Positions 8,286 through 33,195 are shown, numbered from the stretch's first letter. The stretch: DNA of 38,081 bases from an uncultured Candidatus Saccharibacteria bacterium (GCA_964416665.1 CAYQFA010000001.1:1-38081); one strand, 5' to 3'. Translations and numbers: made by a program. The notes: generated by a model from the sequence alone, not told the origin.

Positions 8286-9584
8286 ATGAAACGCTATATT
8301 TACATCATTATTGGAATAGTCGTCGCAGCGATCATCGCAATCATTATTTTGTTCTTTTTGAAAGGAGGTTCGGCGCTGTCCGGGCTTCTGCCGGCAAGCA
8401 TCACTGGTTCTCTTCCCTCTGTTGGTACACAGGGCAGCAACGGCTCAGGAGGAACAACGGGGTTTGGTTCCTCGACAACAGGCGGAACGATCGGCTCAAT
8501 TGGACAAAGCGGTCTCGTAAAAAGTTTCAACATTGTCTCGAATGGCCCGATTCTGGATTACTTTGTTGATACGCAGGGTAAAATTACTGCCATTCAACCA
8601 TCGGGCGAAGTAATCACGGTCTCAGGAAACCAGTCCTCAACGATCAGCTCGAACCAGATCGGCGGAATCATATCCGCAAGTTTTTCTTATGACGGCAAAA
8701 AGATCTTGGTCAGTTTCGGCGACCCAAGCGACCCAGAAGCCGCCGTGTTTGATGTCACAAGCAGCACGTGGACAGCCCTTCCCCAGGGACTGTTCTCGCC
8801 GCAGTGGTCCCCCTCAAACTATCAAATAGCATTCCTTAATGAGTACGGCTCCGGGGTCGCGGTGTTAGACACCATAGATGCGACGAATCCCAATAAGCCC
8901 GGCGTGACGGCACTGCTCTCTCTGAACGCTACCGACCTTTCGTTGCAGTGGATCTCCAAAAACCAGTTTGTCCTGTCCGATAAGCCGAGCGTACAAACAA
9001 CGGGATCGTCGTGGCTTTATAACAGCCAATCGAAAACATTGGTGCCAATCGAGTATGAGATGCTTGGCCCTGAGAGTGTTTGGGATGAATCGGCAACAAC
9101 AACCCTTGGGTTGGCCTATTTTGAAACTTCGAACAGTCAAAGATTAAAGCTCCAACTGGTAGATGCCAGCGGGAACGACGTTCACGATCTAAGCTTCCTC
9201 ACGCTGCCGACAAAGTGTCTTTTCAATGACCAAACGTCAACGGTCGCCCTCGCCACCACCACGTCGGCCCTCGCCACAACAACCGCCAGCTCTTCACCTG
9301 CGGTAGCAGCATCAACAGTCACCTCTACCCCATTCCTTTACTGCGGGGTGCCCTCCGACCCGAACCAACTTTCTTCCGCCCAGCTTCCTGACGATTATAA
9401 CGATGGCGCGCTGTTTACTTCCGACGAAATAATAAAGCTTAATGCGGACACCGGAGCTCTCAGCACGCTTTGGAATGATTCGACGCAAAACGTCGATGCC
9501 ACCGATCTGAAATTCTTCAACAATTCGTTGTTCCTGATCAACCGCTACGATCAAAAACTTTATTCGCTGACATTCGCGCAATAA
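8286..9584 (+). CDS. N-terminally membrane-anchored extracytoplasmic protein, possible TolB/PD40-like beta-propeller
   Basis: One N-terminal TM helix (YIYIIIGIVVAAIIAIIILFF) and a G/S/T linker. A PD40-like segment is present (FSPQWSPSNYQIAFLNE). This is the last gene of the operon. Confidence 0.55.
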   Translation: MKRYIYIIIGIVVAAIIAIIILFFLKGGSALSGLLPASITGSLPSVGTQGSNGSGGTTGFGSSTTGGTIGSIGQSGLVKSFNIVSNGPILDYFVDTQGKITAIQPSGEVITVSGNQSSTISSNQIGGIISASFSYDGKKILVSFGDPSDPEAAVFDVTSSTWTALPQGLFSPQWSPSNYQIAFLNEYGSGVAVLDTIDATNPNKPGVTALLSLNATDLSLQWISKNQFVLSDKPSVQTTGSSWLYNSQSKTLVPIEYEMLGPESVWDESATTTLGLAYFETSNSQRLKLQLVDASGNDVHDLSFLTLPTKCLFNDQTSTVALATTTSALATTTASSSPAVAASTVTSTPFLYCGVPSDPNQLSSAQLPDDYNDGALFTSDEIIKLNADTGALSTLWNDSTQNVDATDLKFFNNSLFLINRYDQKLYSLTFAQ

Positions 9585-10156: not shown

Positions 10157-10867
10157 TTAAGCGCCGTATTTTTTCTGCAGGTGCTGGTTGATAAAATATT
10201 GTTGAACCACTGAAAAAAGCGATGAGATCAGCCAATAGAGACCTATCGCTGAGGGCAGATTGTAGAAAATAAGGATGGTGATAAGAGGAGCGACGAACGC
10301 CATCTGGCGGGCTATTTTCTCGGCAGCGGAAGGCGTACTGCCGGCAGGCGCGCGATATATGGCAAGGCGCGCCTGGAAATATTGGGCGAGCGCCGCCAAT
10401 AGAATAAGGATTATATTGGGTTTTGTCAGGTTGACAAGGCCAAGGAAAAGCCCGTTGATGGTCTGTGGTTGGGGGATGAAGGAATAGAGGTTGCTGAATT
10501 GCGCGACGCCGAACCCCGAGCGCACCACCCAATAGAAAGCGAGCATGATCGGGATCTGAATGACAAGAAGGATAATGCTGGAAAATGGATTGACCCCGTG
10601 CTCTTTGTAAAGCTCCATGAGCGCCTGCGACTGTTTCTGCATGTCGTCCTTGTGCATCTCCTGGATCTTTTTCACCTTCGGCTGGATGCGCTGCATCATC
10701 ATCTGTTGCTTCGCGCCGGTATGAAAAAGCGGATAGAGAATAAAACGGATGAGGAGGGTTGTTAAAATAATTGCGATACCAAGATCGTGCCACGCAAAAT
10801 TCTCATAAAAAAAGATCAGAATATTGAAGATCGGGCGATAAAATATCTGTTGGTAGAGATAGACCAT
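10157..10867 (-). CDS. yidC: YidC/Oxa1-family membrane protein insertase
   Basis: 236-aa polytopic protein of short YidC type (…MQRIQPKVKKIQEMHKDD…LYKEHGVNPF…). Lies in rnpA-yidC-jag synteny. Confidence 0.85.
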   Translation of the reverse strand: MVYLYQQIFYRPIFNILIFFYENFAWHDLGIAIILTTLLIRFILYPLFHTGAKQQMMMQRIQPKVKKIQEMHKDDMQKQSQALMELYKEHGVNPFSSIILLVIQIPIMLAFYWVVRSGFGVAQFSNLYSFIPQPQTINGLFLGLVNLTKPNIILILLAALAQYFQARLAIYRAPAGSTPSAAEKIARQMAFVAPLITILIFYNLPSAIGLYWLISSLFSVVQQYFINQHLQKKYGA

Positions 10868-10879
10868 GGTTTTGTTAAA

Positions 10880-11197
10880 TTATAAACGGATGGTTGCTGC
10901 TGCCTTGGTGAGCGCCCGACGAAACTCTTGCTTTGTGAGTTCGTTGACCTTGGGAAAAAAGATGATCAAGAAATCATTACCCGGCATAATAAGGTCGGCG
11001 GACACCATCTTTGCCTGGCGACGCCAAAAATTCCTTTTTACCGCACTTTTATGCACCGCCTTTCCCACAATAACTCCCACTCTCCTTTTTTGAAGATTAT
11101 TCCTCTTTGCCCGAAGCGAGAAATAGGGAGTTCGCGCGAACTTAAACATTCGCGACTCAAACTCCTTTTTTGGTAAACGATTGGGGATTTGGGACAT
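10880..11197 (-). CDS. rnpA: ribonuclease P protein component
   Basis: 105 aa and basic, with KAVHKSAVKRNFWRRQAK (RNR-type motif). Sits between rpmH and yidC. Confidence 0.8.
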   Translation of the reverse strand: MSQIPNRLPKKEFESRMFKFARTPYFSLRAKRNNLQKRRVGVIVGKAVHKSAVKRNFWRRQAKMVSADLIMPGNDFLIIFFPKVNELTKQEFRRALTKAAATIRL

Positions 11198-11214
11198 AAA
11201 AGCCCTGCCGACAA

Positions 11215-11349
11215 TTAAACGGCGAGCTTCTTTCTGCCTTTTGCTCTCCGACGAGCAAGCACGCGCCGTCCAGTAGGAGTCGCTTGGCGGGTAAGGAATC
11301 CGTGCGTCCGCGCACGTTTCTTTTTCTTCGGATTATACGTTGTCGACAT
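11215..11349 (-). CDS. rpmH: 50S ribosomal protein L34
   Basis: Hand translation gives [44 protein letters not shown] (44 aa, too short for the ORF track). This is the canonical L34 sequence and position. Confidence 0.9.
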
Positions 11350-11519
11350 GCCTTAGATGGTATCATATACATCACCAAAAGCAAATTTTATGAGTTGTTC
11401 ACAGGTAATCCCCAAAGATGAAATATTTGCCTCTTTGACTTGTTGGGTGTAAGAGTTAATAATGAATTCACAAACGCAGCGTGGTTCGGTCCCGAATAAA
11501 TTTTATGAGATTTTAATCA

Positions 11520-12872
11520 ATGGATCTTGAACAAATGTGGCAGTCAACGCTGGGGGAGATGGAGATTCAGCTTTCGCGTGCAAATTTTGCCACCTGGCTT
11601 AAAAACAGCCATCTCGTGGATAAAAAAGATGACACTCTCGTCGTTGCCCTTCCCAATAACTTCACAAAGGTTTGGGTCGAGGATAAGTATCAGAAAAATA
11701 TTCTTGGCATCATAAGGGGTTTGGATGGTTCGGTAAAAAAACTTGAATTCGTCGTCCACAACAAGGCGACCGAGCCATTGAAGGCCGCTGCGGCGCCAAA
11801 AGAGGCGCCGAAGGCCGACCTTATTGACCTGGATTTCAAAACGGATCCTGAGACAGGCCTCAATCCTAAATACACCCTCTCCTCATTTGTCGTCGGGCCT
11901 TCAAATGAATTGGCGTATGCCGCCGCGACTGCCATTACTGAGGAAATTGGGAAGAAATATAATCCTTTCTTTGTTTATGGCGGCGTCGGCTTGGGAAAAA
12001 CCCATCTTATCCAGGGCATCGGCAACGAGATCGTCGCAAAGTACCACAAAAAAGTCCGTCCTAAATATGTTTCTTCTGAACAATTTACCCGTGACATTGT
12101 TTGGGGCATCCGCAACGGGCGCATAGAGGATATAAAAAAGAAATATCGCGATGTTGATGTGCTCATTATCGACGACATCCAGTTTATTGGTGGCAAAGAC
12201 AAGACCGAAGAGGAATTCTTCCACACATTTAACGCACTTTATGAGAACAACAAGCAGATTATCATCTCGTCCGACCGGCCGCCACAATCCCTGCCAACCC
12301 TCGAGGAACGCCTCCGTTCGCGTTTTGAGGGTGGCTTGATAGCCGATGTGGCGTATCCCGAATTTGAGATGCGCGTAGCGATCATTAAGAGCAAACTCCA
12401 GGATATGAATAAACAATTAAGCGATCCTGTTATCAACCTTCTTGCTAAAAAACTAAGAAAGAATATTCGCGAACTCGAGGGGGTGTTGAAAAAGATCATT
12501 TTTTATCAAGAGCGCAAACAAACCGAGATAACCGAGAAAATCGCCGAGGAAATCATAGAGAAAGCGACCCAAAATCTCACCAAGAAGGTGAATGATGCCC
12601 AAATTCTCAACGCCGTCGCCGAATTTTTCAACATCACCATCGACGATCTTCTTAGCCACAACCGAAGGAAGGAGGTTGTTCAGCCGCGGCAGATCGCCAT
12701 CTATCTTCTTCGGGATATCTCGGATCTTTCCTATCCGTATATTGGTGAAAAGCTGGGGAGAGATCACACCACCGCCATCCATTCCTACGAAAAGATCAAC
12801 CATGAAATAAACAGAAATCCAGGACTTAACCAGAAGATATTAATGATCAAGGACATAATTTACAAGAGTTAA
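11520..12872 (+). CDS. dnaA: chromosomal replication initiator DnaA
   Basis: Walker A GGVGLGKTHL, Walker B LIIDDIQF, and the C-terminal DNA-binding helix (RDHTTAIHSYEKI). Confidence 0.97.
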   Translation: MDLEQMWQSTLGEMEIQLSRANFATWLKNSHLVDKKDDTLVVALPNNFTKVWVEDKYQKNILGIIRGLDGSVKKLEFVVHNKATEPLKAAAAPKEAPKADLIDLDFKTDPETGLNPKYTLSSFVVGPSNELAYAAATAITEEIGKKYNPFFVYGGVGLGKTHLIQGIGNEIVAKYHKKVRPKYVSSEQFTRDIVWGIRNGRIEDIKKKYRDVDVLIIDDIQFIGGKDKTEEEFFHTFNALYENNKQIIISSDRPPQSLPTLEERLRSRFEGGLIADVAYPEFEMRVAIIKSKLQDMNKQLSDPVINLLAKKLRKNIRELEGVLKKIIFYQERKQTEITEKIAEEIIEKATQNLTKKVNDAQILNAVAEFFNITIDDLLSHNRRKEVVQPRQIAIYLLRDISDLSYPYIGEKLGRDHTTAIHSYEKINHEINRNPGLNQKILMIKDIIYKS

Positions 12873-13006
12873 TACCGTGTTTTTCCACAAGACGAACCGA
12901 TTATAAAGTAGGTGAAAGCTGAATTCTTAATGAATTATCCCCAGAAAAGCGATTCCTAATAGTAATATCAACAATAAGTATTTATATATAAAATATAATT
13001 AAGACT
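12873..13006. other. candidate oriC (dnaA-dnaN spacer)
   Basis: TTTTCCACA at 12881-12889 and TTATCCCCA at 12935-12943 are each one mismatch from the TTATCCACA DnaA box. An AT-rich tract at 12961-13000 (agtaatatcaacaataagtatttatatataaaatataatt) could be a DNA unwinding element (DUE). Confidence 0.5.
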
Positions 13007-14119
13007 ATGAAATTCATCGCACTCCGTTCAAATATCAAAGAAGCTATTTCTCTTATTGAAAAGGCGGTTGGAGAAAACAGCAACCTCCCTATTTTAAAAA
13101 ATATCCTTATTGAAGCGAAGGATGGTGCGATAGTGTTCAGTGCCACCAACTTGGAAATTGCCATCAGCCACAAGGTGATGGGAAAGGTGATCGAGGAAGG
13201 GAAGGTTTCCCCTCCATTAGCCCTCTTTTCCAACCTTATTGCCAATATTCCCACCGACCGCTTGAATTTTGAGACCAAAGAGAACGATCTTGAAATTGCA
13301 ACCGACAATTATAGCGCCGTCATCCATGGATTATCACCAGAGGACTTTCCATTGACGCCGACCGTTAAAAATCAAAGCCGCTACCTGGAAATCAAAGGGG
13401 TTTTCCTTAAAGAAGCCATCCAACAAACCATTGTTGCCTCCCAATTTTCCGACATCCGCCCGGAGCTTAATACCATCCTTTTTGAATTTTCGCTTGAAAA
13501 ACTTATCCTCGCCGCCACCGACGGGTTTCGTCTCGCTGAAAAATCAATTCCTTCAAGCGTCTTTACTTCGTCGCAAAAGGAGCCGTTCAAGATGTTGGTT
13601 CCCCTTAAGACCAGCGTGGAGATGTCTCGTATTGTGAAAGACGAGGATGTGGTGCGCATTTTTTGGGACGAAAACCAGATTCTCATAAAGACCGAAACCA
13701 CCGAGCTGATCTCACGGCTCATTGAGGGCGCCTTCCCCGACTATTCATCTATTGTCCCGCACGAGTTCGATGCGGAGATCGTGGTCAACCACGAGGAGTT
13801 TGTCGGCGCCATTAAGCTTGCCGGTGTCTTTGGGCAAAAAAATAGCGAGATCAAAATAAAGATCCACTCGAACAAAAAAGCGATCGAGATAAGTTCTGCA
13901 GACCAATCGCTTGGCGAAAACAATCACATCCTTCCCGCAAAAATAAAAGGAGAGAGCGAGGAGGTGTTTTTCAACTGGAGATATCTTGGCGATTCGATGA
14001 AGGGGATAAGAACCGAGGATGTCTTTTTGGGTTTCCAAAACGAGGCCGGGCCGGCGCTCATCCGTTCTACCACTGATGGCTCGTATTTTTATATTCTCAA
14101 ACCGATCTTGAAGTCCTAG
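13007..14119 (+). CDS. dnaN: DNA polymerase III beta sliding clamp
   Basis: 370 aa starting MKFIALRSNIKEAISLIEKAVG…, with three-domain length. Lies immediately downstream of dnaA. Confidence 0.95.
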   Translation: MKFIALRSNIKEAISLIEKAVGENSNLPILKNILIEAKDGAIVFSATNLEIAISHKVMGKVIEEGKVSPPLALFSNLIANIPTDRLNFETKENDLEIATDNYSAVIHGLSPEDFPLTPTVKNQSRYLEIKGVFLKEAIQQTIVASQFSDIRPELNTILFEFSLEKLILAATDGFRLAEKSIPSSVFTSSQKEPFKMLVPLKTSVEMSRIVKDEDVVRIFWDENQILIKTETTELISRLIEGAFPDYSSIVPHEFDAEIVVNHEEFVGAIKLAGVFGQKNSEIKIKIHSNKKAIEISSADQSLGENNHILPAKIKGESEEVFFNWRYLGDSMKGIRTEDVFLGFQNEAGPALIRSTTDGSYFYILKPILKS

Positions 14120-16636: not shown

Positions 16637-17104
16637 TCAATAGCGCTCGCCCGAGCAAAAAATGGCGAGCGCAAGCGCGTCGCTCGCGTCGTCGATCACT
16701 TTTAGGTCTTTTTTGCCGAGAATGAGCCGCACCATTTTGAGCACCGCTTTTTTATCGGCAAAGCCGTACCCTGTCACCCCCAATTTCACTTCATTCGGAG
16801 TGTATTCTTTTATGTCGACGCGGCACTCCTTTGCGGCAAGGAGCACGACGCCGCGCGCCTGGGCGACCGCGATGGCCGTTTTTTGGTTCTTTGCGAAAAA
16901 TATCTTTTCTATGGCCACGACGTCGGGTTTGTGTTTCTTGATAAGGCGGTCGATCTCGTTTTTCGTCTCTTCGAGTGCGGAGATGTCGTCTTTTGTTTTG
17001 ATATTGAAAATCCCCGCGGCAACATATTTCGCCGTTCCGCGCTCCGAATCCACCACGCCATAGCCGATCCTTCTACTTCCCGGGTCAATACCAAGAGCTA
17101 TCAT
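16637..17104 (-). CDS. ruvC: crossover junction endodeoxyribonuclease RuvC
   Basis: MIALGIDPGSRRIGYGVV… (catalytic Asp motif). 155 aa with a RuvC-type C-terminus (DDASDALALAI). Confidence 0.92.
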   Translation of the reverse strand: MIALGIDPGSRRIGYGVVDSERGTAKYVAAGIFNIKTKDDISALEETKNEIDRLIKKHKPDVVAIEKIFFAKNQKTAIAVAQARGVVLLAAKECRVDIKEYTPNEVKLGVTGYGFADKKAVLKMVRLILGKKDLKVIDDASDALALAIFCSGERY

Positions 17105-17175
17105 AAGGCGATTAATATTTTTATAGCGCGCTTCATAGTGTTTGTTATGCCGTTAGTATATCGCCTTGCGTGGGC

Positions 17176-17220
17176 AAAAAAAAGCAGCTCGCAATCCGTG
17201 TTTTATTACGGACCGCGAGC
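17176..17220 (-). terminator. rho-independent terminator of the 17243..17911 gene
   Basis: The minus strand reads GCTCGCGGTCCGT-aataaaac-ACGGATTGCGAGC-tgcTTTTTTTT. The stem is 13 nt per arm with one mismatch, followed by a U-run of 8. Confidence 0.75.
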
Positions 17221-17242
17221 CGCGAGCGAACAAGAGATATCT

Positions 17243-17911
17243 TTACTGTGCCACGACGGTCCTCCGGTAGCCGGTGGCTTTGGTGCCGCTGATGGTGATC
17301 AGAACGACCCGGCGACCTTGGTATTGGGTCGTGTCGATCTTGCCGAAGAAAATAGGCAGATCGTTGCAAAGCTGTTCGCTCTGCAGCGGGTTTATGTTTT
17401 TGACGGCCTTGAACCAGTCGTCGAGCTGATGCTTCGAGCCAAGCCTCCCGTTCCGGCCGGTTGCGTCGTGTTGATCGAGCCAGCGCTTGATGTTCTCAAC
17501 GCGCTGCTTGATCTCCGTCACGCCGGGATTTTTTCCGAGAAATTCCGGAGTGATGGCCAGGTCGCCGAGAAGGGCTTTGTTCATCGCCCAATCCGGAAGA
17601 CCTTGCGCCAGGTTCGGGAGGACGTTCACGACGGGCGAGGTACATACCCGCACGTTGTAGTCCACTTCCGACTGTCCGTTGAGACCAAAGGAGGAATCGA
17701 TGTATTTTCTTTCGAAAATTCCGCCCGGTTCCGTCAGCCTTCTGTCGATGGTCCCGTTCATCACGGGGCCGATCCTGCTGTCGGTGTTGTTGATGATCTT
17801 CACGTCCACCTGCGGGACGTTCCCCACAAGGAATCCAACGGTTTGAGCGTGGGAGGTTGTCGCAAGGACAAATCCCAGGATAGCGATGACAAAGAGCGCG
17901 ATGCGTTTCAT
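17243..17911 (-). CDS. secreted hypothetical protein
   Basis: Signal peptide MKRIALFVIAILGFVLATTSHAQT. 222 aa with its own terminator. No family recognised. Confidence 0.65.
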   Translation of the reverse strand: MKRIALFVIAILGFVLATTSHAQTVGFLVGNVPQVDVKIINNTDSRIGPVMNGTIDRRLTEPGGIFERKYIDSSFGLNGQSEVDYNVRVCTSPVVNVLPNLAQGLPDWAMNKALLGDLAITPEFLGKNPGVTEIKQRVENIKRWLDQHDATGRNGRLGSKHQLDDWFKAVKNINPLQSEQLCNDLPIFFGKIDTTQYQGRRVVLITISGTKATGYRRTVVAQ

Positions 17912-18051
17912 TTCTCTCTCCGATCTTCAAGGGATTTTCCACCCCTCTGCGTATATGATTATACCATTAAAATGCCATATTTGTCAATGACCTTAAAAAC
18001 CGGTTAAAACTTGCTTGAAGTGAATGGTTTGAAAGGGTACTATACAGAGAC

Positions 18052-19728
18052 ATGGCAGATTCACCGCAAAAAGACCTTCAGGAAAAGCTTAAAAAACTTC
18101 GGCACGAAGGGGAGGAGCGCGCCGCCCGGCGCCTGGCGGAGACGTTGGGGCTTTCCTACGTTGACCTTTCAAGGATTCCGGTCTCTCTTGACGCCGTGCG
18201 GGTGATCCCCGAGCAGGTTGCACGCGACGCGAAGATCGCTTCCATTGAAAGCAAGTCGAAAAAACTCGCCGTCGCCGCGGTCGATCCGGAACTTCCCGCC
18301 GCAAAAAAGGCGATCGCGGATCTTGTCGCGCAGAAATATGAGGTGAGGGTGGTGGTGGTCTCGTCATCGGGGATAGAGGCCGCGTGGCACTTTTATCAAT
18401 TCATAAAACCGGACGTCGCGAACATCACCGGCAAGGTCAATATCACAAAAGATCGCCTGACGGATCTTCGCTCTCGTTTGACAACGATAGACGCCATCCA
18501 CGACGAGCTTTCGAAATTGGACTTTAATAAGGCATCCCCGGTCGTCCTCATTGAGATAATTCTTGCGGGCGCCATGGGAGTGCGCACGTCGGATATTCAT
18601 ACCGAAGCCGGGGAAAAGGGAGCGAAGATCCGTTTCCGCATCGACGGCCTTCTCCGCGATATTTTCACCGACCTCCCGCTCCGCACCTATCAGGCATTCG
18701 TTTCACGCATCAAGTTGCTTTCCGAAATGAAGTTAAACGTCAAGAGCGAGGCGCAGGACGGTCGCTTCACGATCGGGTTGGGCGATAAGGAGATCGAGAT
18801 GCGCGTTTCCATCATACCTGCGGAGTTCGGGGAGACGATCGTCATGAGAATTCTTGACCCATCAGCGACGATGGTCGGTTTGCCCGACCTTGGATTGCGT
18901 GAAGACAATCTCGCGCTCGTAAAAAAACAGCTCGACCGCCCGAACGGACTGATATTGAACACCGGCCCCACGGGTTCCGGAAAGACCACCACGCTTTATG
19001 CGTTTTTGCGCACCATGAACGACCCGACGGTCAAGATCATCACCCTCGAGGATCCTATCGAATATCGCATTGACGGCGTCGAGCAGACGCAGGTGAATGA
19101 CGAATCGGGCTACACTTTTGCGAGCGGCTTGCGCGCCATCGTGCGCCAAGATCCCGATGTGATCCTCGTAGGCGAGGTGCGCGACCTCGAAACCGCTGAC
19201 ATCGCGATGCAAGCGGCGCTCACCGGTCACCTTGTGCTTTCAACACTGCATACCAACGATGCCGTCGGTGCCGTGCCGCGCCTGATCAATCTTGGCGTGA
19301 AAGCGGTGAGCATCGGTCCTGCGCTTGCGCTCGTTATCGCACAGCGTCTGGTGCGCGTGCTGTGCAAGGAGTGTAAAAAAGAGGCCGCAGTGGATGATGC
19401 GACCAAAGAAAAAATAAAGGCGTTTTTGGAGAAGCTCCCCGCGAAAGTGAACCGCGCGCCGTATGAGAATTATAAAATCTATGGACCGGTTGGTTGCTTA
19501 AAATGCAATGGTCTTGGCTATAAAGGCCGCGTCGGTGTCTTCGAATTTTTAGAAGGCGGCGGCGACTTGGAAGTGACCATCTTAAAAGAGGCTTCGGAAG
19601 TCGCGTTGCGTGAGGTTGCGGCGCGCCAAGGGATGGTCACGATGCAACAAGATGGTATATTGAAGGTGTTGGAAGGAAAGACGACGTTCGATGAAGTGAC
19701 AGGCGCTACCGGAGAACTCGCGTGGTAG
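18052..19728 (+). CDS. pilB: GspE/PilB-family type II/IV secretion (type IV pilus assembly) ATPase
   Basis: Walker A GPTGSGKTTT, Asp box, and His box TGHLVLSTLHTN. A tetracysteine motif is present (CKECKK…CLKCNGLGYKGR). 558 aa. Confidence 0.9.
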   Translation: MADSPQKDLQEKLKKLRHEGEERAARRLAETLGLSYVDLSRIPVSLDAVRVIPEQVARDAKIASIESKSKKLAVAAVDPELPAAKKAIADLVAQKYEVRVVVVSSSGIEAAWHFYQFIKPDVANITGKVNITKDRLTDLRSRLTTIDAIHDELSKLDFNKASPVVLIEIILAGAMGVRTSDIHTEAGEKGAKIRFRIDGLLRDIFTDLPLRTYQAFVSRIKLLSEMKLNVKSEAQDGRFTIGLGDKEIEMRVSIIPAEFGETIVMRILDPSATMVGLPDLGLREDNLALVKKQLDRPNGLILNTGPTGSGKTTTLYAFLRTMNDPTVKIITLEDPIEYRIDGVEQTQVNDESGYTFASGLRAIVRQDPDVILVGEVRDLETADIAMQAALTGHLVLSTLHTNDAVGAVPRLINLGVKAVSIGPALALVIAQRLVRVLCKECKKEAAVDDATKEKIKAFLEKLPAKVNRAPYENYKIYGPVGCLKCNGLGYKGRVGVFEFLEGGGDLEVTILKEASEVALREVAARQGMVTMQQDGILKVLEGKTTFDEVTGATGELAW

Positions 19729-19925
19729 CTGGCAGTAGGTAACAAGCTCAAACCTGGGGGCAATTCCTCGCGAAAGGATAATGTTCTCTTCTATCAAATG
19801 ATAAAAGAGGATAGAATTACTCAAAGGATGGAACCAGCCGGAACCGATTCGTCCTAAAGTTTTTAGAAATAATTCCCGCCCCCAGATTTGAACCGACTAC
19901 CTGCCAAAGATCTTTTATTGATTAC
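19729..19925 (-). ncRNA. candidate structured small RNA (unknown class) closed by a ~28-bp terminal stem
   Basis: Arm 19731-19760 pairs with arm 19879-19905. Five positions are A/C mismatches on the plus strand but G-U wobbles on the minus strand. Internal hairpins are UUCUAAA-aac-UUUAGGA and UCCUCUUUUAUCA-uu-UGAUAGAAGAGAA. A consensus promoter lies directly upstream on the minus strand. Confidence 0.4.
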
Positions 19926-19931
19926 CGGTAT

Positions 19932-19960
19932 ATATTAGCATGTTGTTAATTTTTTGTCAA
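19932..19960 (-). promoter_or_regulatory. sigma70-type promoter TTGACA-17 nt-TAATAT with TGn extension (minus strand)
   Basis: The minus strand reads cTTGACAaaaaattaacaacaTGcTAATATataccgg. It points away from ruvB and into the structured region. Confidence 0.6.
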
Positions 19961-19974
19961 GCCCCTTTTCGCCC

Positions 19975-20985
19975 ATGCCAAAAGACCCCAAATCCAACCT
20001 CATAAACCCTGCCGATGACCCGAATATCGACCTCACTCTACGGCCGGTCATTTGGGACGAATATATCGGGCAGGAAAAGATAAAAGACAACTTGAAAGTT
20101 TTACTTGAGGCTGCAAAAAAGCGCGGCGAGGCGGCCGACCACCTTTTATTTTCCGGTCCGGCGGGATTGGGGAAGACGACGCTCGCATATCTTGTCGCGC
20201 GCGAGCTCGGCGGCGTGATCAAGACCACGTCCGGCCCGGCGCTTGAGAAGGTTGGCGATCTCGCTGCGGTGTTGACGAACCTCACGCCCGGCGAAATATT
20301 ATTCATCGACGAGGCGCACCGCGTGAACCCCATGATCGAGGAAGTCCTCTATCCGGCAATGGAGTCGCGGAAGCTGCATCTCGTTGTCGGCAAGGGACCC
20401 TCCGCACGAACACTGACCTTGGACTTGCCGCCGTTCACCTTGATCGCCGCGACCACACGCGAGAATCTTTTGTCCCAGCCGCTTCGCTCGCGGTTCGGCG
20501 CAACATTGCGATTGGGATACTACACGGTGGATGACATTAAAAAAATATTAACGCGCTCGGCAAAAATTCTGGGCGTCCAGGCGTCGCCGGAGGCGATAGA
20601 GGTTTTGGCGCGGGCATCGCGGGGGACGCCTCGTGTTGCGAACCGGCTTTTGCGCCGTGCGCGCGACTTCGCCGAAGTGCATCGCAACAGTGTTATCGAC
20701 GAAGCTTCTGCGCGTCGCACCCTTGAGATGCTTGAAGTTGACGAGCTTGGCCTCGAACCGCAGGATCGTCAGCTGCTTTTAACGATCATCGAGAAGTTCA
20801 ATGGCGGCCCCGTCGGCATCAACACACTCGCTGCGGCGCTCTCCGAGGAGCGCGGCGTGATCGAGGATATCTACGAGCCCTATCTTATGACGCTTGGTTT
20901 TTTGCAACGCTCATCGAGCGGCCGCGTCGTACTGCCGGCTGCGTATAAACATTTGAAGCTAAAGCAAGGGGACGAGCTGTTCTAG
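19975..20985 (+). CDS. ruvB: Holliday junction branch-migration helicase RuvB
   Basis: LRPVIWDEYIGQEKIK, Walker A GPAGLGKTTLA, Walker B LFIDEAHR. ATG at 19975 is preferred over the TTG at 19954. Confidence 0.95.
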   Translation: MPKDPKSNLINPADDPNIDLTLRPVIWDEYIGQEKIKDNLKVLLEAAKKRGEAADHLLFSGPAGLGKTTLAYLVARELGGVIKTTSGPALEKVGDLAAVLTNLTPGEILFIDEAHRVNPMIEEVLYPAMESRKLHLVVGKGPSARTLTLDLPPFTLIAATTRENLLSQPLRSRFGATLRLGYYTVDDIKKILTRSAKILGVQASPEAIEVLARASRGTPRVANRLLRRARDFAEVHRNSVIDEASARRTLEMLEVDELGLEPQDRQLLLTIIEKFNGGPVGINTLAAALSEERGVIEDIYEPYLMTLGFLQRSSSGRVVLPAAYKHLKLKQGDELF

Positions 20986-24428: not shown

Positions 24429-26090
24429 ATGATAACCAAAACCACAAAATATATTTTCATTGTCGGCGGGGTGATGTCGGGAGTCGGAAAGGGCGTTGCA
24501 TCTTCTTCCATCGGAAAAATCATCCAGTCGCGTGGTATCGAAGTCACTTCTCTCAAGATCGATCCGTATGTAAACGTTGACGCAGGCACTATGAACCCCA
24601 CCGAACACGGTGAGGTTTTTGTTTTGGACGACGGCACCGAGTGCGATCAGGACATGGGCAATTATGAGCGCTTCCTCGATCGCGATCTTTCCGGCGCAAA
24701 TTACATGACGACGGGGAGTGTCTACAAAACCGTGATCGAGCGCGAGCGGAGCATGGGCTATGGCGGAAGATCGGTGAGCGTGGTGCCGTACATTCCGATA
24801 GAAGTGATCGACCGCATCAACAACGCCGTCGCACTTGCGAAGGCGGAGGTGGCGATCATCGAGATCGGCGGCACGGCGGGAGAATATGAGAACATACTTT
24901 TCCTGGAAGCGGTGCGCATGCTGAGGATCAAGCATCCGAAAGATGTCTTGCTCGTGTTGGTAAGCCATTTGCCGATCATGAGCGACGACAATGAGTTGAA
25001 GACGAAACCGACGCAGCATGCGGTGCGTGCGCTGAACGGCGTGGGATTGCAACCGGACATCATCCTTGCGCGTGCGAAGTATCCTCTCGACGAGAAAAGG
25101 AAAGAGAAGATCGCGTTCAATTGCAATTTGCGCGAAGAGGATGTCATCTCCGCACCGGACGTCGCGAACCTTTACGACATTCCCGTCAATTTCGAGAAGG
25201 ATAATATCGGGGACATCATTCTGGAGAAACTTTCCATGCGGCCGCGGAAAAAGGATATGAAGGAGTGGCGCGCGTTCGCGGAAAAAGTGCACAACGCGAG
25301 CGAACTGGTACACATCGGCATCGTGGGAAAATATTTTTCGACCGGGCAGTTCATTCTTGCGGATTCGTATCTCTCTGTGATCGAGTCGATCAAGCACGCT
25401 TCCGCGTTTTGGAACGTGCGTCCGCAGATCCATTGGCTGGATTCCGAGCAATTTGAAAAAGGCGGCGCGGCGCTCGAGGAGCTTAAAAAATACGACGGCA
25501 TCATCGTGCCGGGAGGCTTTGGGAGTCGTGGCGTGGAAGGGAAGCTGGCGGCTATCCAGTATTGCCGCGAGCATGCGATTCCGTATTTCGGGCTCTGCTA
25601 TGGTATGCAGCTTGCGGTGGTGGAATATGCCCGCAATGTGCTGAAATTCAAGGGCGCCAACACCACAGAGATCGATCCGAAAACGAAGTATCCCGTCATC
25701 GATATCCTGCCGGAGCAAAAGAAGCTCATGGCGGAAAAGAAGTACGGCGCCACGATGCGGCTTGGCGCATATCCGGCGGTGTTGAAGAAGGGGAGCGCAG
25801 CGGAGAAGGCGTACGGGAGGACGAATATTTCCGAGCGTCACCGCCATCGCTATGAGGTCAACCCTGTTTATGTGAAGCGGCTTGAAAAAGCAGGGATCAT
25901 CTTTTCCGGACAGTCGCCCAGCAGGAGGCTCATGGAAGTTATGGAGCTTCCGAAAGCGGTGCATCCGTTTTTCATCGGCACACAGTTTCATCCTGAGCTG
26001 AAGTCGCGGCCGCTCGATCCCAACCCGCTTTTCCGTGAGTTCGTCCATGCGGCGATTGTCCATCAAAAAACGCCGCCCAAGGCACAATGA
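24429..26090 (+). CDS. pyrG: CTP synthase
   Basis: YIFIVGGVMSGVGKG, the glutaminase nucleophile region GLCYGMQ, and HRHRYEVN. The in-frame ATG at 24429 is preferred to the track start. Confidence 0.95.
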   Translation: MITKTTKYIFIVGGVMSGVGKGVASSSIGKIIQSRGIEVTSLKIDPYVNVDAGTMNPTEHGEVFVLDDGTECDQDMGNYERFLDRDLSGANYMTTGSVYKTVIERERSMGYGGRSVSVVPYIPIEVIDRINNAVALAKAEVAIIEIGGTAGEYENILFLEAVRMLRIKHPKDVLLVLVSHLPIMSDDNELKTKPTQHAVRALNGVGLQPDIILARAKYPLDEKRKEKIAFNCNLREEDVISAPDVANLYDIPVNFEKDNIGDIILEKLSMRPRKKDMKEWRAFAEKVHNASELVHIGIVGKYFSTGQFILADSYLSVIESIKHASAFWNVRPQIHWLDSEQFEKGGAALEELKKYDGIIVPGGFGSRGVEGKLAAIQYCREHAIPYFGLCYGMQLAVVEYARNVLKFKGANTTEIDPKTKYPVIDILPEQKKLMAEKKYGATMRLGAYPAVLKKGSAAEKAYGRTNISERHRHRYEVNPVYVKRLEKAGIIFSGQSPSRRLMEVMELPKAVHPFFIGTQFHPELKSRPLDPNPLFREFVHAAIVHQKTPPKAQ

Positions 26091-26875
26091 TCATTTTTCT
26101 CTACGGCCCTGATGATTATCGGCGACAACTGAAAAAGCAGTCGCTTGTCGATGAATTCAACAAGAAGCGCTCGGCGACCGGTTTAGCCTTTTTTGATCTG
26201 GAAAATGGTAGCGCGCAGGATGAGCTTCTCGAATTCCTCGCGAACCAATCCATCTTCGAATCGGCGAAACTCGCGGTAATCGAAAACGCGTTCGAGATTC
26301 CCGCGCCAAAATTGGCAAAACTGCTTAAGCCATTCTTGGTTTCTAAAAATATCACTTTACTTATCACCGAAAAAGATAAACCAATGAAGGCGCTCGCGTT
26401 CCTTTTGGAAAAGCCGGCGATCGCGCAGAAATTCGAAGTTCTCTCGGGTGCCGAATGGATCAGCTTCATTAAAGCTGAGGCAAAAAAACTTGGTATTCAA
26501 TTTACCGCCTCAGCGATCCAATTTTTGGCGGATGTATATCAGGGCGATACGTGGGGTGTTATCACCGAACTTCAAAAGCTCGCCGGCTTTGCCGAAGATG
26601 GCGCGGTGATCGATAAGAAAGATCTGAATGTGTTCGATCTCGAGATCGCGCCGAACTATTGGGGGCTTATGAACGGATTGAAAAGCTATGACCTCAAAAA
26701 TCGGCTGTACGCCTTCGAGTCCATGCTCGCGCTCGGCGACCCGGCAGCGAAGATATTCAACATCCTTGCATCGCAATGGCAAGAAAAAATTCCGCACATG
26801 GCGGAATATGATCTGGCGGTGAAGTCCGGAAAAGTGGACTACGAAGAGGCCTTGGTAGACTTATTGATCAGCTGA
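26087..26875 (+). CDS. holA: DNA polymerase III delta subunit (short form), tentative
   Basis: The N-terminus MIIFLYGPDDYRRQ… and the length and layout resemble the short HolA proteins I recall from CPR genomes. Similarity is weak. The start overlaps the pyrG stop (ATGA). Confidence 0.55.
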   Translation: MIIFLYGPDDYRRQLKKQSLVDEFNKKRSATGLAFFDLENGSAQDELLEFLANQSIFESAKLAVIENAFEIPAPKLAKLLKPFLVSKNITLLITEKDKPMKALAFLLEKPAIAQKFEVLSGAEWISFIKAEAKKLGIQFTASAIQFLADVYQGDTWGVITELQKLAGFAEDGAVIDKKDLNVFDLEIAPNYWGLMNGLKSYDLKNRLYAFESMLALGDPAAKIFNILASQWQEKIPHMAEYDLAVKSGKVDYEEALVDLLIS

Positions 26876-27114
26876 GCGAGACGTGACTTTAGGCGGCTGG
26901 CCTTATTCTTTTCAATGACGTTCGTCTTTGCAGCCTTGTCGAGAGCCTTGAACGCTGCCGGAAGCGCCTTTGCGGCCTCATCGAGCTTCTTTGCGGCTAC
27001 AAGCTTGCGGTAATCAATAACAGCCTTCTTATAGGCCTCTTTTTTGACCACATTTCTCGTGTGGCGGGTCTTGTTCTGGCGGAGCGCTTTCTTTGCTGAT
27101 GTAGTGATTGGCAT
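26839..27114 (-). CDS. rpsT: 30S ribosomal protein S20
   Basis: MPITTSAKKALRQNKTRHTRNVVKKEAYKKAV… is a canonical S20 N-terminus. 91 aa. Its 3' end overlaps holA convergently by 37 nt. Confidence 0.9.
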   Translation of the reverse strand: MPITTSAKKALRQNKTRHTRNVVKKEAYKKAVIDYRKLVAAKKLDEAAKALPAAFKALDKAAKTNVIEKNKASRLKSRLAQLINKSTKASS

Positions 27115-27217
27115 GAGGGTTAGTATAAAACAAAAATGGATAATTGCAAGCGGGCAGGGTCTTTTAATGAGAACGCCCCCGAAAAGATGTTCTTTTGCGG
27201 GGGCTGAAATGCGATGG

Positions 27218-27763
27218 TCAATCGTTTTTTGGCGGGAAGTTCTGCATCAGGCGGATATTGCGGGCCCCCAACCAGATATGCACCGCCGTCACGCCGGCGT
27301 TGACTGTTATGGTTGTGATCTTTGCGGCGTTCCCGTGATGAATGAAGTGTCGCGGGATCGTAACGGATGTCCACGACAACAATTCCTCGAACACCGCCGA
27401 AGATCCTGCTACTCCGACCTTGTTGCACGGGCCAAAGCCTGTCAGCAAGGGGTCGGCCTCGCAGATGGACACCGTCATGCCTTTGTACTTGCCTGGGGTG
27501 GTGTAGCTATACCCCGGGACCGTCAGTCCGGCCTCCGTTGCCCCCAGGTCGAACACCGCCGCAGGATATCGCTCAAGAATGAGCGAGAGCTTTTCGATCC
27601 TGTCGAGTCTGGAGTGCCCCGTGATCATGGTATATCCGGGACCCATGGCGATCTTTTTGATTGCCATGGGCAAGGGAGCATCGGGCAGGTCTTGCGCCCG
27701 GCCGACGAGTGTTGAGGTAAACGCGAATACAAGAGCAAAGACAACTAAGAAACTTTTTTTCAC
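27218..27763 (-). CDS. secreted hypothetical protein
   Basis: Signal peptide MKKSFLVVFALVFAFTSTLVGRAQD. 181 aa. No family recognised. Confidence 0.6.
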   Translation of the reverse strand: MKKSFLVVFALVFAFTSTLVGRAQDLPDAPLPMAIKKIAMGPGYTMITGHSRLDRIEKLSLILERYPAAVFDLGATEAGLTVPGYSYTTPGKYKGMTVSICEADPLLTGFGPCNKVGVAGSSAVFEELLSWTSVTIPRHFIHHGNAAKITTITVNAGVTAVHIWLGARNIRLMQNFPPKND

Positions 27764-27948
27764 AATCGTCTCCTGGGTGCAAAATTGAGCTTCTCGCGCA
27801 ACTGTTATTCTGTTGGCAAGCGAACTCTGCCCGTATTAATATCATTTTCGCTTCTATTTGTCAAGATTTCCGCAGTGATTTCATGGCTTCGCGCCACCCG
27901 ACCTCTTCCAGCGCTCCTTTTTATCCGCATCCGCGCTATAATGGAGGC

Positions 27949-28527
27949 ATGATTTATAGCGTCTTGGGGAAGTTGGCGTTAAAAGGGGATGGTTTTGTGG
28001 TCGTTGAAGTTGGTGGTCTCGGCATTAAACTTTACGCGAGCAAGCGAACCATTGACGCATTGCCGGCAGCCGGGGGTGAGGCAAAGTTCTTTTCGCATCT
28101 TAATGTGAAAGAGGACGCTCTCGATCTCTACGGTTTTGTTTCCCAGGAAGAGTTGGATTTCTTTGAGCTTCTCATCTCAGTTTCGGGCGTCGGGCCAAAG
28201 TCGGCTCTCGCGATCCTTGACGTCGGGCCATTAGGCGAGCTTGCCGCGGCGATCAAGGAAGGGCGCCCCGATCTGCTCACCCGCGCGGCGGGTGTCGGCA
28301 GGAAGATCGCCGAGCGGGTCATTTTGGAATTGAGGTCAAAGGTAACATCGGTGACCTCCGGCGCGGTCGTGGAAAAAATGCAGACGGACTCGGATCTTGT
28401 GGAGGCACTTACCGGTCTCGGCTATCGCCGCGATGAGGCGCGTGCCGCGCTTGGAAAAGTTGATGCCGCGGTGACGGGGACCGAAGACCGCTTGAAAGCG
28501 GCGCTCAGAATATTAAGCACGAAATAA
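27949..28527 (+). CDS. ruvA: Holliday junction DNA-binding protein RuvA
   Basis: MIYSVLGKLALKGDGFVVVEVGGLGIKLYAS…, an HhH region (LISVSGVGPKSALAIL…AGVGRKIAERV) and a domain III tail. GGAGG lies just upstream of the ATG, and a TATAAT is at 27936-27941. Confidence 0.9.
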   Translation: MIYSVLGKLALKGDGFVVVEVGGLGIKLYASKRTIDALPAAGGEAKFFSHLNVKEDALDLYGFVSQEELDFFELLISVSGVGPKSALAILDVGPLGELAAAIKEGRPDLLTRAAGVGRKIAERVILELRSKVTSVTSGAVVEKMQTDSDLVEALTGLGYRRDEARAALGKVDAAVTGTEDRLKAALRILSTK

Positions 28528-33000: not shown

Positions 33001-33072
33001 GCTCTCGTAGTTTAATGGATAGAATATCTCCCTCCGAAGGAGGTGGTCGTGGTTCGATTCCACGCGAGAGCA
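33001..33072 (+). tRNA. tRNA-Arg (anticodon CCG)
   Basis: Hand-folded cloverleaf. Acceptor stem is GCUCUCG/CGAGAGC. D arm is GUUU-AAUGGAUA-GAAU. Anticodon arm is UCUCC-CUCCGAA-GGAGG. Variable loop is UGGU. T arm is CGUGG-UUCGAUU-CCACG. Discriminator is A. No encoded CCA. Confidence 0.9.
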
Positions 33073-33195
33073 CAAGTTGGAGTCTTTGCTTAGGATTGAG
33101 GGTCGCGTCGCAATCTGCTGATTGCGCGCTACGCCTCGGCGCCTACGCGCCTCCGGCATACCCTCAATCCTAAGCAAAGACTCCAACTTGTTTTT
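33073..33195 (+). repeat. 31-bp perfect inverted repeat (56-nt loop) followed by TTTTT; giant terminator-like hairpin
   Basis: 33073-33103 (caagttggagtctttgcttaggattgagggt) is the exact reverse complement of 33160-33190. The loop contains a 7-bp hairpin, cgcaatc-tgct-gattgcg. A T-run lies at 33191-33195. Confidence 0.85.

Follow-up and report, generated by a model that had tools for sequence, protein, structure and literature searches.

A predicted stand-alone structured RNA gene between pilB and ruvB of Patescibacteria

What occupies the 246 nt that separate the gene for a PilB/T2SSE ATPase from the ATG of ruvB in this DNA? Both genes lie on the plus strand of the window, by which we mean the whole stretch of 38,081 nt that was analysed, and a preliminary description had proposed that the opposite strand of the gap encodes a promoter-driven structured RNA of no family that could be named. 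Taking the evidence as a whole, we consider it probable that a stable, highly structured small RNA, from a family not represented in Rfam, is encoded here by a stand-alone gene; a trans-acting role is inferred for it. The two flanking genes are the following.

18052-19728, plus strand: pilB (T2SSE/PilB ATPase), stop codon at 19726-19728
19975-20985, plus strand: ruvB, all three RuvB domains recognised by Pfam, ATG at 19975

Read in its own direction, the RNA points towards the end of pilB and away from ruvB. Its predicted promoter is a near-consensus promoter of the sigma-70 type with an extended -10, which in a promoter scan of the minus strand matched the consensus at 10 of 12 positions, with the TG present. 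The parts of the predicted gene, in the order of transcription and all on the minus strand, are listed below, where P1 to P4 denote the helical elements of the minimum-free-energy (MFE) fold.

19955..19960, minus strand: -35 hexamer TTGACA, from the promoter scan, 14 nt from the ruvB ATG and on the opposite strand to it
19932..19940, minus strand: extended -10, TGC plus TAATAT; the 17-nt spacer ends in TGC, and TAATAT runs from 19937 to 19932
19908..19925, minus strand: inferred 5' leader, from promoter geometry, with a start assumed about 7 nt past the -10 and extending up to P1
19877..19907, minus strand: 5' strand of P1, inner part CUGGGGGC nearly invariant, outer part covarying
19813..19876, minus strand: P2 arm, from the MFE fold and alignment helices 2 and 3
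19786..19809, minus strand: P3 hairpin, CUCUUUUAUC / GAUAGAAGAG, from the MFE fold and alignment helix 4
19765..19778, minus strand: P4 hairpin, UCCUU-UCGC-GAGGA, from the MFE fold and per-sequence folding
19729..19762, minus strand: 3' strand of P1, inner part GCCCCCAG nearly invariant, the last bases abutting the pilB stop codon
19756..19883, minus strand: putative processed core of 128 nt, GGGGGC...GCCCCC, with a 6-bp G:C clamp, tentatively placed from adapter junctions

Folded as the minus-strand RNA, positions 19725-19915 reach an MFE of -76.8 kcal/mol, whereas dinucleotide shuffles give -48.1 +/- 4.3 (z = -6.65), and not one of the 200 shuffles equals the native sequence. The plus strand, too, outperforms its shuffles, though less strongly (z = -3.2). 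In the predicted minus-strand fold a closing stem, P1, surrounds three hairpin arms, P2, P3 and P4. P1 pairs 19877-19907 with 19729-19762 through 29 base pairs, six of them G-U and none A-C, interrupted by two small bulges. The preliminary description had anticipated a closing stem of about 28 bp with five wobbles, at least two interior hairpins, duplicated GGUUCC and AUCCUUU elements (each indeed occurs twice in the minus-strand RNA) and a minus-strand TTGACA-17-TAATAT promoter with an upstream TG, and all of its statements at the level of sequence hold.

The outer part of P2 consists of a helix, GGGAAUUAUU/GAGUAAUUCU, followed by a 5' internal loop of about 11 nt, and its inner part of an invariant AGGA/UCCU helix, a covarying 5-bp helix, an invariant GG..C and a UNCG-type tetraloop cap. 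The apices of the arms are UNCG tetraloops or variable stem extensions. The core is predicted to be a tight four-way junction in which P1 stacks directly on further helices, the 5' linker being only 1 nt long in the group of relatives that we refer to below as subtype 1, and the helices next to the junction (CUGGGGGC/GCCCCCAG, GGAAU/AUUCU, AGGA/UCCU and UCC/GGA) are invariant. An all-against-all column screen for a pseudoknot or other tertiary pairing returned lineage-correlated noise without any run of consecutive pairs, and only in a few sequences could the P2 internal loop pair with J3/4. A role as a CsrA-type sponge was rejected, as the three conserved GGA motifs are located in helices rather than in loops.

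Eighty loci from species-representative genomes were fetched with the RuvB protein as query, and these loci place the source organism among the Patescibacteria, in the Parcubacteria/Paceibacteria (Minisyncoccia) group, the Parcubacteria being CPR bacteria of ultra-small size. By blastn, the element is found at 63-90% identity upstream of ruvB and on the opposite strand in loci L001-L020 and L050. A covariance model built from these homologues, R1, scores them at 129-184 bits and detects nothing elsewhere in 683 kb, save weaker matches in more distantly related Patescibacteria, again at this position. Metagenome contigs were scanned with an RNA-centred pattern, and of the 120 loci obtained 33 fit R1 (111-182 bits), all 33 with pilB and the RNA gene converging and ruvB diverging from the latter. 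Subtype 1 is made up of members from 21 species-representative genomes and 33 metagenome contigs. In one of the metagenome contigs (L127) an array of tandem units of about 7-8 nt (GTTCATA / GGTTCAT / GTGCATA...), seen in no other relative, lies about 100 nt downstream of the RNA gene, past locus position 1450.

The same site is occupied in most other Patescibacteria loci examined by intermediates and by a second form, subtype 2, in which a long, nearly perfect P1 (AUAAAUCUCUAAGCAAU / AUUGUUUAGAGAUUUAU) is combined with a small covarying hairpin and a P2 arm. The P2 core AGGAC...UGG...CUG...UAUCCU is common to both subtypes, and in subtype 2 it is followed by AUUAC and one further hairpin. The subtype 2 alignment (17 sequences) contains 39 pairs, 29 of them compensatory, and the corresponding covariance model, R2, has 18 strong members, one of which is outside the seed, and cross-matches subtype 1 and the intermediates. 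Members of the family are 130-190 nt long, and no locus outside the Patescibacteria, among those scanned, matched R1 or R2. From these comparisons the predicted RNA family is class-wide, has at least two structural subtypes and is confined, as far as sampled, to the Parcubacteria/Paceibacteria. A phage origin was also considered and rejected, the pattern scan of viral contigs yielding three chance matches, none of which fitted the covariance model.

Across 203 loci (contigs, not whole genomes) every homologue is positioned upstream of ruvB, one per contig, and the same holds over approximately 1.4 Mb of related DNA, where the single copy is at the orthologous site every time; the arm sequence occurs once in the 38-kb window. 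While the pilB-gap-ruvB arrangement reaches down to PilB identities of about 40%, the RNA remains beside ruvB where pilB is not upstream (L031, L036, L039 and L053), and the conserved linkage is therefore with ruvB.

The promoter is conserved together with the RNA. It was found in 48 of 51 distinct homologues as TTGACA, a spacer of 16-18 nt (17 in nearly all) and TAnnnT, usually preceded by TGC, the TTGACA being exact in nearly all of the 48; a divergent consensus promoter of the same kind is present upstream of ruvB in most other Patescibacteria loci. Relatives differ in the leader between the -10 and P1, both in its sequence, which is not conserved, and in its length, which ranges from about 10 to about 60 nt; this suggests a precursor. 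At the other end, a G+C-rich hairpin with a U-run, resembling an intrinsic terminator, lies downstream of P1 in at least 15 of the 51 homologues, and in many others a U-run immediately follows the 3' strand of P1, so that P1 could double as the terminator. The window copy lacks both a terminator and a U-run past P1 and continues antisense into the last pilB codons; we cannot explain the formation of its 3' end otherwise than by processing.

The decisive evidence that the locus encodes an RNA is comparative, namely conservation together with covariation. In a structure-blind MAFFT alignment of the 21 genomes (A1), RNAalifold predicted a consensus fold of 48 pairs, 24 of which carry compensatory double changes, for example CUGGGGGC/GCCCCCAG to CAGUGGGC/GCCCACUG, or GAAUC/GGUUC to GGAUU/AAUCC, GGUUU/AAACC or AGCUU/AAGCU. 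In a model-fitted alignment of 55 sequences (A3; 51 distinct), 95.8% of the cells form standard pairs, compared with 38-57% when the partner is slid by 1-3 columns, and 30 of the 48 pairs have changed on both sides; none of 500 shuffles matches the observed value on any measure. Compensatory changes are present in 14 of 21 pairs of helix 1 (P1) and in all eight pairs of helix 4 (P3). Keeping in mind that the pair counts from A3 lean towards the structure to which that alignment was fitted, it is of importance that the MAFFT alignment gives the same picture. P4 was missed by the alignment, and per-sequence folding, which is biased towards pairing, finds the hairpin in 50 of 51 sequences, with a fixed UCC/GGA base, a fourth pair that is U-A in 31 and C-G in 11, and a stem of varying length.

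Wobble pairs identify the strand. Among the 51 distinct homologues 296 cells are G-U and 42 are A-C, and this excess assigns the RNA firmly to the strand that encodes neither ruvB nor pilB. Within the limits of such alignments, compensatory mutations are shown to maintain the predicted fold on the minus strand only. The inference in the preliminary description of a minus-strand structured RNA, rather than a DNA palindrome or a miniature inverted-repeat element (MITE), is thereby borne out on each count that it had left to relatives: pairs covary, wobbles are strand-biased, and dispersed copies, which would have spoken for a MITE, were not seen in the window or in any contig, the single copy being syntenic throughout.

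Is the RNA made? The window organism is present in wetland and peat metagenomes, and the RNA gene of this organism or its close relatives is covered by contigs from metatranscriptomes X25, X27, X29-X33, X35, X37, X39 and X40, which were aligned either to the window or to a homologous locus, L117. No contigs of comparable identity cover pilB or ruvB, where the other matches are short conserved ATPase motifs from unrelated organisms, and two DNA runs from the same kind of sample (X1 and X2) cover all three genes evenly. That RNA runs cover the RNA gene only and DNA runs are even argues for a discrete transcript far more abundant than the neighbouring mRNAs. The contigs from X25, X37 and X39 also include the RNA promoter or the start of ruvB, so that precursors, opposite-strand transcripts or contaminating DNA contribute as well. 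This evidence consists of assembled contigs without strand, so that the expressed strand is an inference resting on sequence signals instead of reads; of the discrete minus-strand transcript for which the preliminary description had advised looking, the transcript is supported and the strand inferred.

The ends of the contigs suggest processing. In X27, adapter junctions (loose-end letters read as Illumina adapter) delimit an insert at L117 2187-2314 (GGGGGC...GCCCCC); the insert in X25 begins at window 19756, the equivalent 3' position, and L117 2187 recurs as a contig boundary in X31 and X33. Tentatively, these ends point to trimming as far as a 6-bp G:C clamp, which would leave a core of 128 nt (window 19883..19756). 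No single library chemistry reconciles the adapter orientations of X25 with those of X27, and the strand is accordingly not deduced from them. In addition, at L117 2178-2186 (window 19884-19892) the P1 sequence TTCAGATCT of some relatives is one base off the 3' end of the Illumina adapter, TTCCGATCT, and owing to this near-identity aligners can misplace insert ends by 9 nt. A separate observation concerns DNA run X1, where a 134-nt contig at window 19754-19887 with 12 differences has about four times the depth of its flanks; a more abundant related strain in that sample thus shares the conserved RNA core, and assembly graphs consequently break at 19754 and 19781.

No known family accounts for these features. 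Rfam 15 gave no match at 19600-20100 (E <= 10) and none in seven relatives of both subtypes (E <= 1); apart from a tRNA-Arg elsewhere in the window, the Rfam scans returned chance sub-threshold matches only. ARAGORN detected no tRNA or tmRNA at the locus; tmRNA was rejected on this result, on the Rfam scan and on the absence of its conserved motifs, and a T-loop-like string, GGUUCAAAUC, proved to be merely part of P1. SRP RNA and RNase P RNA are recognised by conserved motifs (a GGAA tetraloop with an AGCA loop; GAGGAAAGUCC), and both were rejected as these motifs are absent and Rfam finds no match. The possibility of a small-protein gene was also dismissed, there being no conserved ORF among relatives and the lengths being out of phase. 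The searchable full-text literature on CPR bacteria yielded no account of an RNA of this kind. As far as Rfam 15 and that literature show, this is a new, stand-alone, class-wide RNA family, and the preliminary description was right to assign it to none. It resembles orphan RNAs such as raiA, OLE, ROOL, Chlorobi-1 and Flavo-1 in being lineage-restricted, supported by covariation, independently transcribed and of undetermined function, and raiA and OLE likewise have conserved gene neighbourhoods; it differs from these RNAs in being tied to ruvB and unrelated to them in sequence and fold (no Rfam match).

How might such an RNA act? We hypothesize a primary transcript with a leader and a trailer that both vary, in which the outer, variable part of P1 is the stem for processing or termination and from which trimming in the direction of the invariant G:C clamp yields an RNA of about 130-175 nt. 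In this RNA, P1 would pair the 5' and 3' ends and the four-way junction with P2, P3 and P4 would sit on top, the invariant junction-proximal helices forming a platform whose sequence a conserved partner, most probably a protein, may recognise specifically. On this view the RNA functions in trans, either within a housekeeping-type ribonucleoprotein or by sequestering a protein. The basis for this best guess is that the junction-proximal helices are invariant while the other helices covary freely, a pattern typical of protein recognition or of a tertiary core. It is an inference without an identified partner protein, and we regard it as close to a toss-up. In particular, the strict linkage to ruvB, with a -35 hexamer so near to its ATG, fits a role in cis more naturally.

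The reading that follows from this linkage is that transcription of the RNA interferes with ruvB, and perhaps pilB, in cis, through polymerase collision, promoter occlusion or cleavage of a duplex by RNase III, any of which could set RuvB levels, the structure then serving RNA stability or pairing kinetics. Since the RNA gene fills the spacer and its promoter is 14 nt from the start codon, the ruvB mRNA probably crosses it head-on. The divergent pair of RNA gene and ruvB is strictly conserved across the class even without an adjacent pilB; no promoter-like site was found on the plus strand of the pilB-ruvB gap, including the part between the RNA promoter and the ruvB ATG, and no obvious Shine-Dalgarno sequence was found for ruvB. 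A candidate -10 for ruvB, TAGAAT (the complement of the conserved AUUCUA), was rejected, lacking a conserved -35 and being absent from subtype 2. The contigs from X25, X37 and X39, which join the RNA gene, its promoter and the 5' end of ruvB, are compatible with an overlapping ruvB-sense transcript, but these bridging contigs are possibly DNA. Further, antisense action requires neither invariant four-way-junction helices nor some 30 compensated pairs, many relatives end the RNA right past P1 and need not reach pilB, and the G-U bias points to selection on the fold of the minus-strand RNA itself. We consider such a cis function, although it is the chief rival, unlikely as the explanation of the locus, keeping in mind that it does not exclude a role in trans.

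The preliminary description had been reminded of 6S RNA and Y RNAs by the size and the long closing stem, a resemblance that does not extend to the architecture. 6S RNA has a large single-stranded central bubble that mimics an open promoter, binds the sigma-70 holoenzyme and templates pRNA. Like 6S RNA (SsrS; RF00013 and related), the window RNA is a predicted stand-alone gene with a strong housekeeping-type promoter of its own, a length of about 150-190 nt, a long stem that closes the molecule by pairing its ends, a leader whose variability implies maturation and, apparently, a place among the most readily recovered transcripts of the organism, and a highly divergent 6S RNA binding the housekeeping RNA polymerase holoenzyme is conceivable; the absence of a canonical 6S RNA from the 38-kb window is very weak evidence in the same direction. 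However, the Rfam 6S models do not match even at E <= 10, the closing stem is nearly perfect whereas that of 6S RNA is bulged, and a tight four-way junction stands where 6S RNA has a bubble between two irregular helical arms. The 5' side holds a 1-nt linker in subtype 1 or a covarying hairpin in subtype 2, and without a large central bubble there is no evident template strand for pRNA. The clamp-trimmed RNA, if real, would also lose the closing stem that 6S RNA needs. Identity with 6S RNA is thus improbable in our judgement.

With the bacterial Y RNAs (YrlA/Yrn1, bound by Ro/Rsr) the window RNA shares a long stem formed by its ends that bears a multi-helix module, and an orphan-like, probably protein-binding character. 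It differs from them in having no Rfam match, no tRNA-like T-arm and no conserved bulged Ro-binding helix in the stem. An rsr/TROVE gene was absent from the 16 ORFs of the window that were scanned, between 8.3 and 28.5 kb; these include YidC, DnaA, DnaN, PBP1, RuvC, PilB, RuvB, an LTD-domain protein, a 5'-3' exonuclease, a histidine kinase, CTP synthase and RuvA.

An element of a plus-strand pilB-ruvB mRNA, such as an intercistronic structure or a riboswitch or protein-binding leader in the 5' untranslated region of ruvB, would be directly upstream of ruvB, could draw on the better-than-shuffled plus-strand fold and would explain why some RNA-run contigs link the RNA gene to ruvB. Read on that strand, though, the 296 G-U cells turn into A-C and pairing falls from 95.8% to 85.4%, the covariance model scores the reverse strand at only 22-45 bits vs. 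111-184 bits for the subtype 1 members, and it is the minus strand that carries both the conserved promoter and the terminators. There remains a very slight chance that the plus strand is the functional one. As in the aptamers of SAM-I and cobalamin riboswitches, conservation is highest at nucleotides adjacent to a four-helix junction, which is closed by P1; in contrast to these riboswitches, the RNA has no downstream gene on the same strand, no expression platform and no match to a riboswitch model. A riboswitch or cis-regulatory leader was rejected, as the RNA converges on pilB and diverges from ruvB, with terminators past P1 in many relatives. A MITE or another inverted repeat acting as DNA (a mobile element remnant or a cruciform site), to which terminal inverted repeats of about 30 bp flanking some 115 bp could point, deserves hardly any credence and is rejected on the single copy at a fixed, orthologous locus and the strand-biased wobbles, with compensatory changes in the internal hairpins and no match in viral contigs counting against it as well.

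Returning to the favoured stand-alone RNA with an inferred role in trans, its position allows a more specific proposal, which is a long shot: the RNA could be coupled to the Holliday-junction machinery, as a decoy or regulator of RuvA, RuvB or RuvC or by otherwise setting recombination or repair capacity, or, more broadly, could be part of a CPR-specific housekeeping ribonucleoprotein. The proposal derives from the RNA being itself a protein-sized four-way junction beside ruvB, with ruvC and ruvA inside the same 12 kb. The bacteria that host the RNA are naturally competent and host-dependent. The other two genes, both from the window ORF scan, are as follows.

16637-17104, minus strand: ruvC
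27883-28527, plus strand: ruvA

All three Holliday-junction genes are thus found inside 12 kb without forming an operon, ruvC on the minus strand and ruvB and ruvA on the plus strand; pilB, the RNA gene and the genes for an LTD-domain protein, a 5'-3' exonuclease, a PAS histidine kinase and CTP synthase are located between them.

A large part of bacterial diversity belongs to the Patescibacteria (CPR), whose genomes are tiny and on which hardly any experiments exist. In a streamlined genome, a non-coding locus of about 250 bp with a consensus promoter, about 45 compensated pairs, a fixed position across a class and recurrent assembly from metatranscriptomes, without the neighbouring mRNAs, is unlikely to be dispensable. 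If the RNA proves to be a new housekeeping ribonucleoprotein or global regulator, it would join a very short list of widely conserved stable RNAs of bacteria and offer a handle on CPR-specific biology. The covariance models R1 and R2 could be used as a lineage marker in the annotation of metagenome-assembled genomes. A member of the class, Minisyncoccus, is in cultivation (PMC12281837), which brings the RNA within experimental reach.

Several other features of the window were recorded. The region 10157-14119 resembles the neighbourhood of a chromosomal replication origin, with yidC (10157-10867, minus strand), dnaA (11520-12872, plus strand) and dnaN (13007-14119, plus strand); G+C is low (0.42-0.47) at 10-14 kb, and the cumulative GC skew has its minimum near 9-10 kb. 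Four sizeable plus-strand ORFs (16883-18007, 8286-9584, 26087-26875 and 27044-27715) belong to no Pfam family at the thresholds used. The first of these separates ruvC from pilB; since its 5' part overlaps ruvC on the other strand, a start codon further into the ORF is probably the true one. A tRNA-Arg (CCG) gene at 33001-33073, followed by a low-G+C stretch at 33-35 kb, is the sole match in the window to ARAGORN and to the Rfam scan of the whole window at gathering thresholds.
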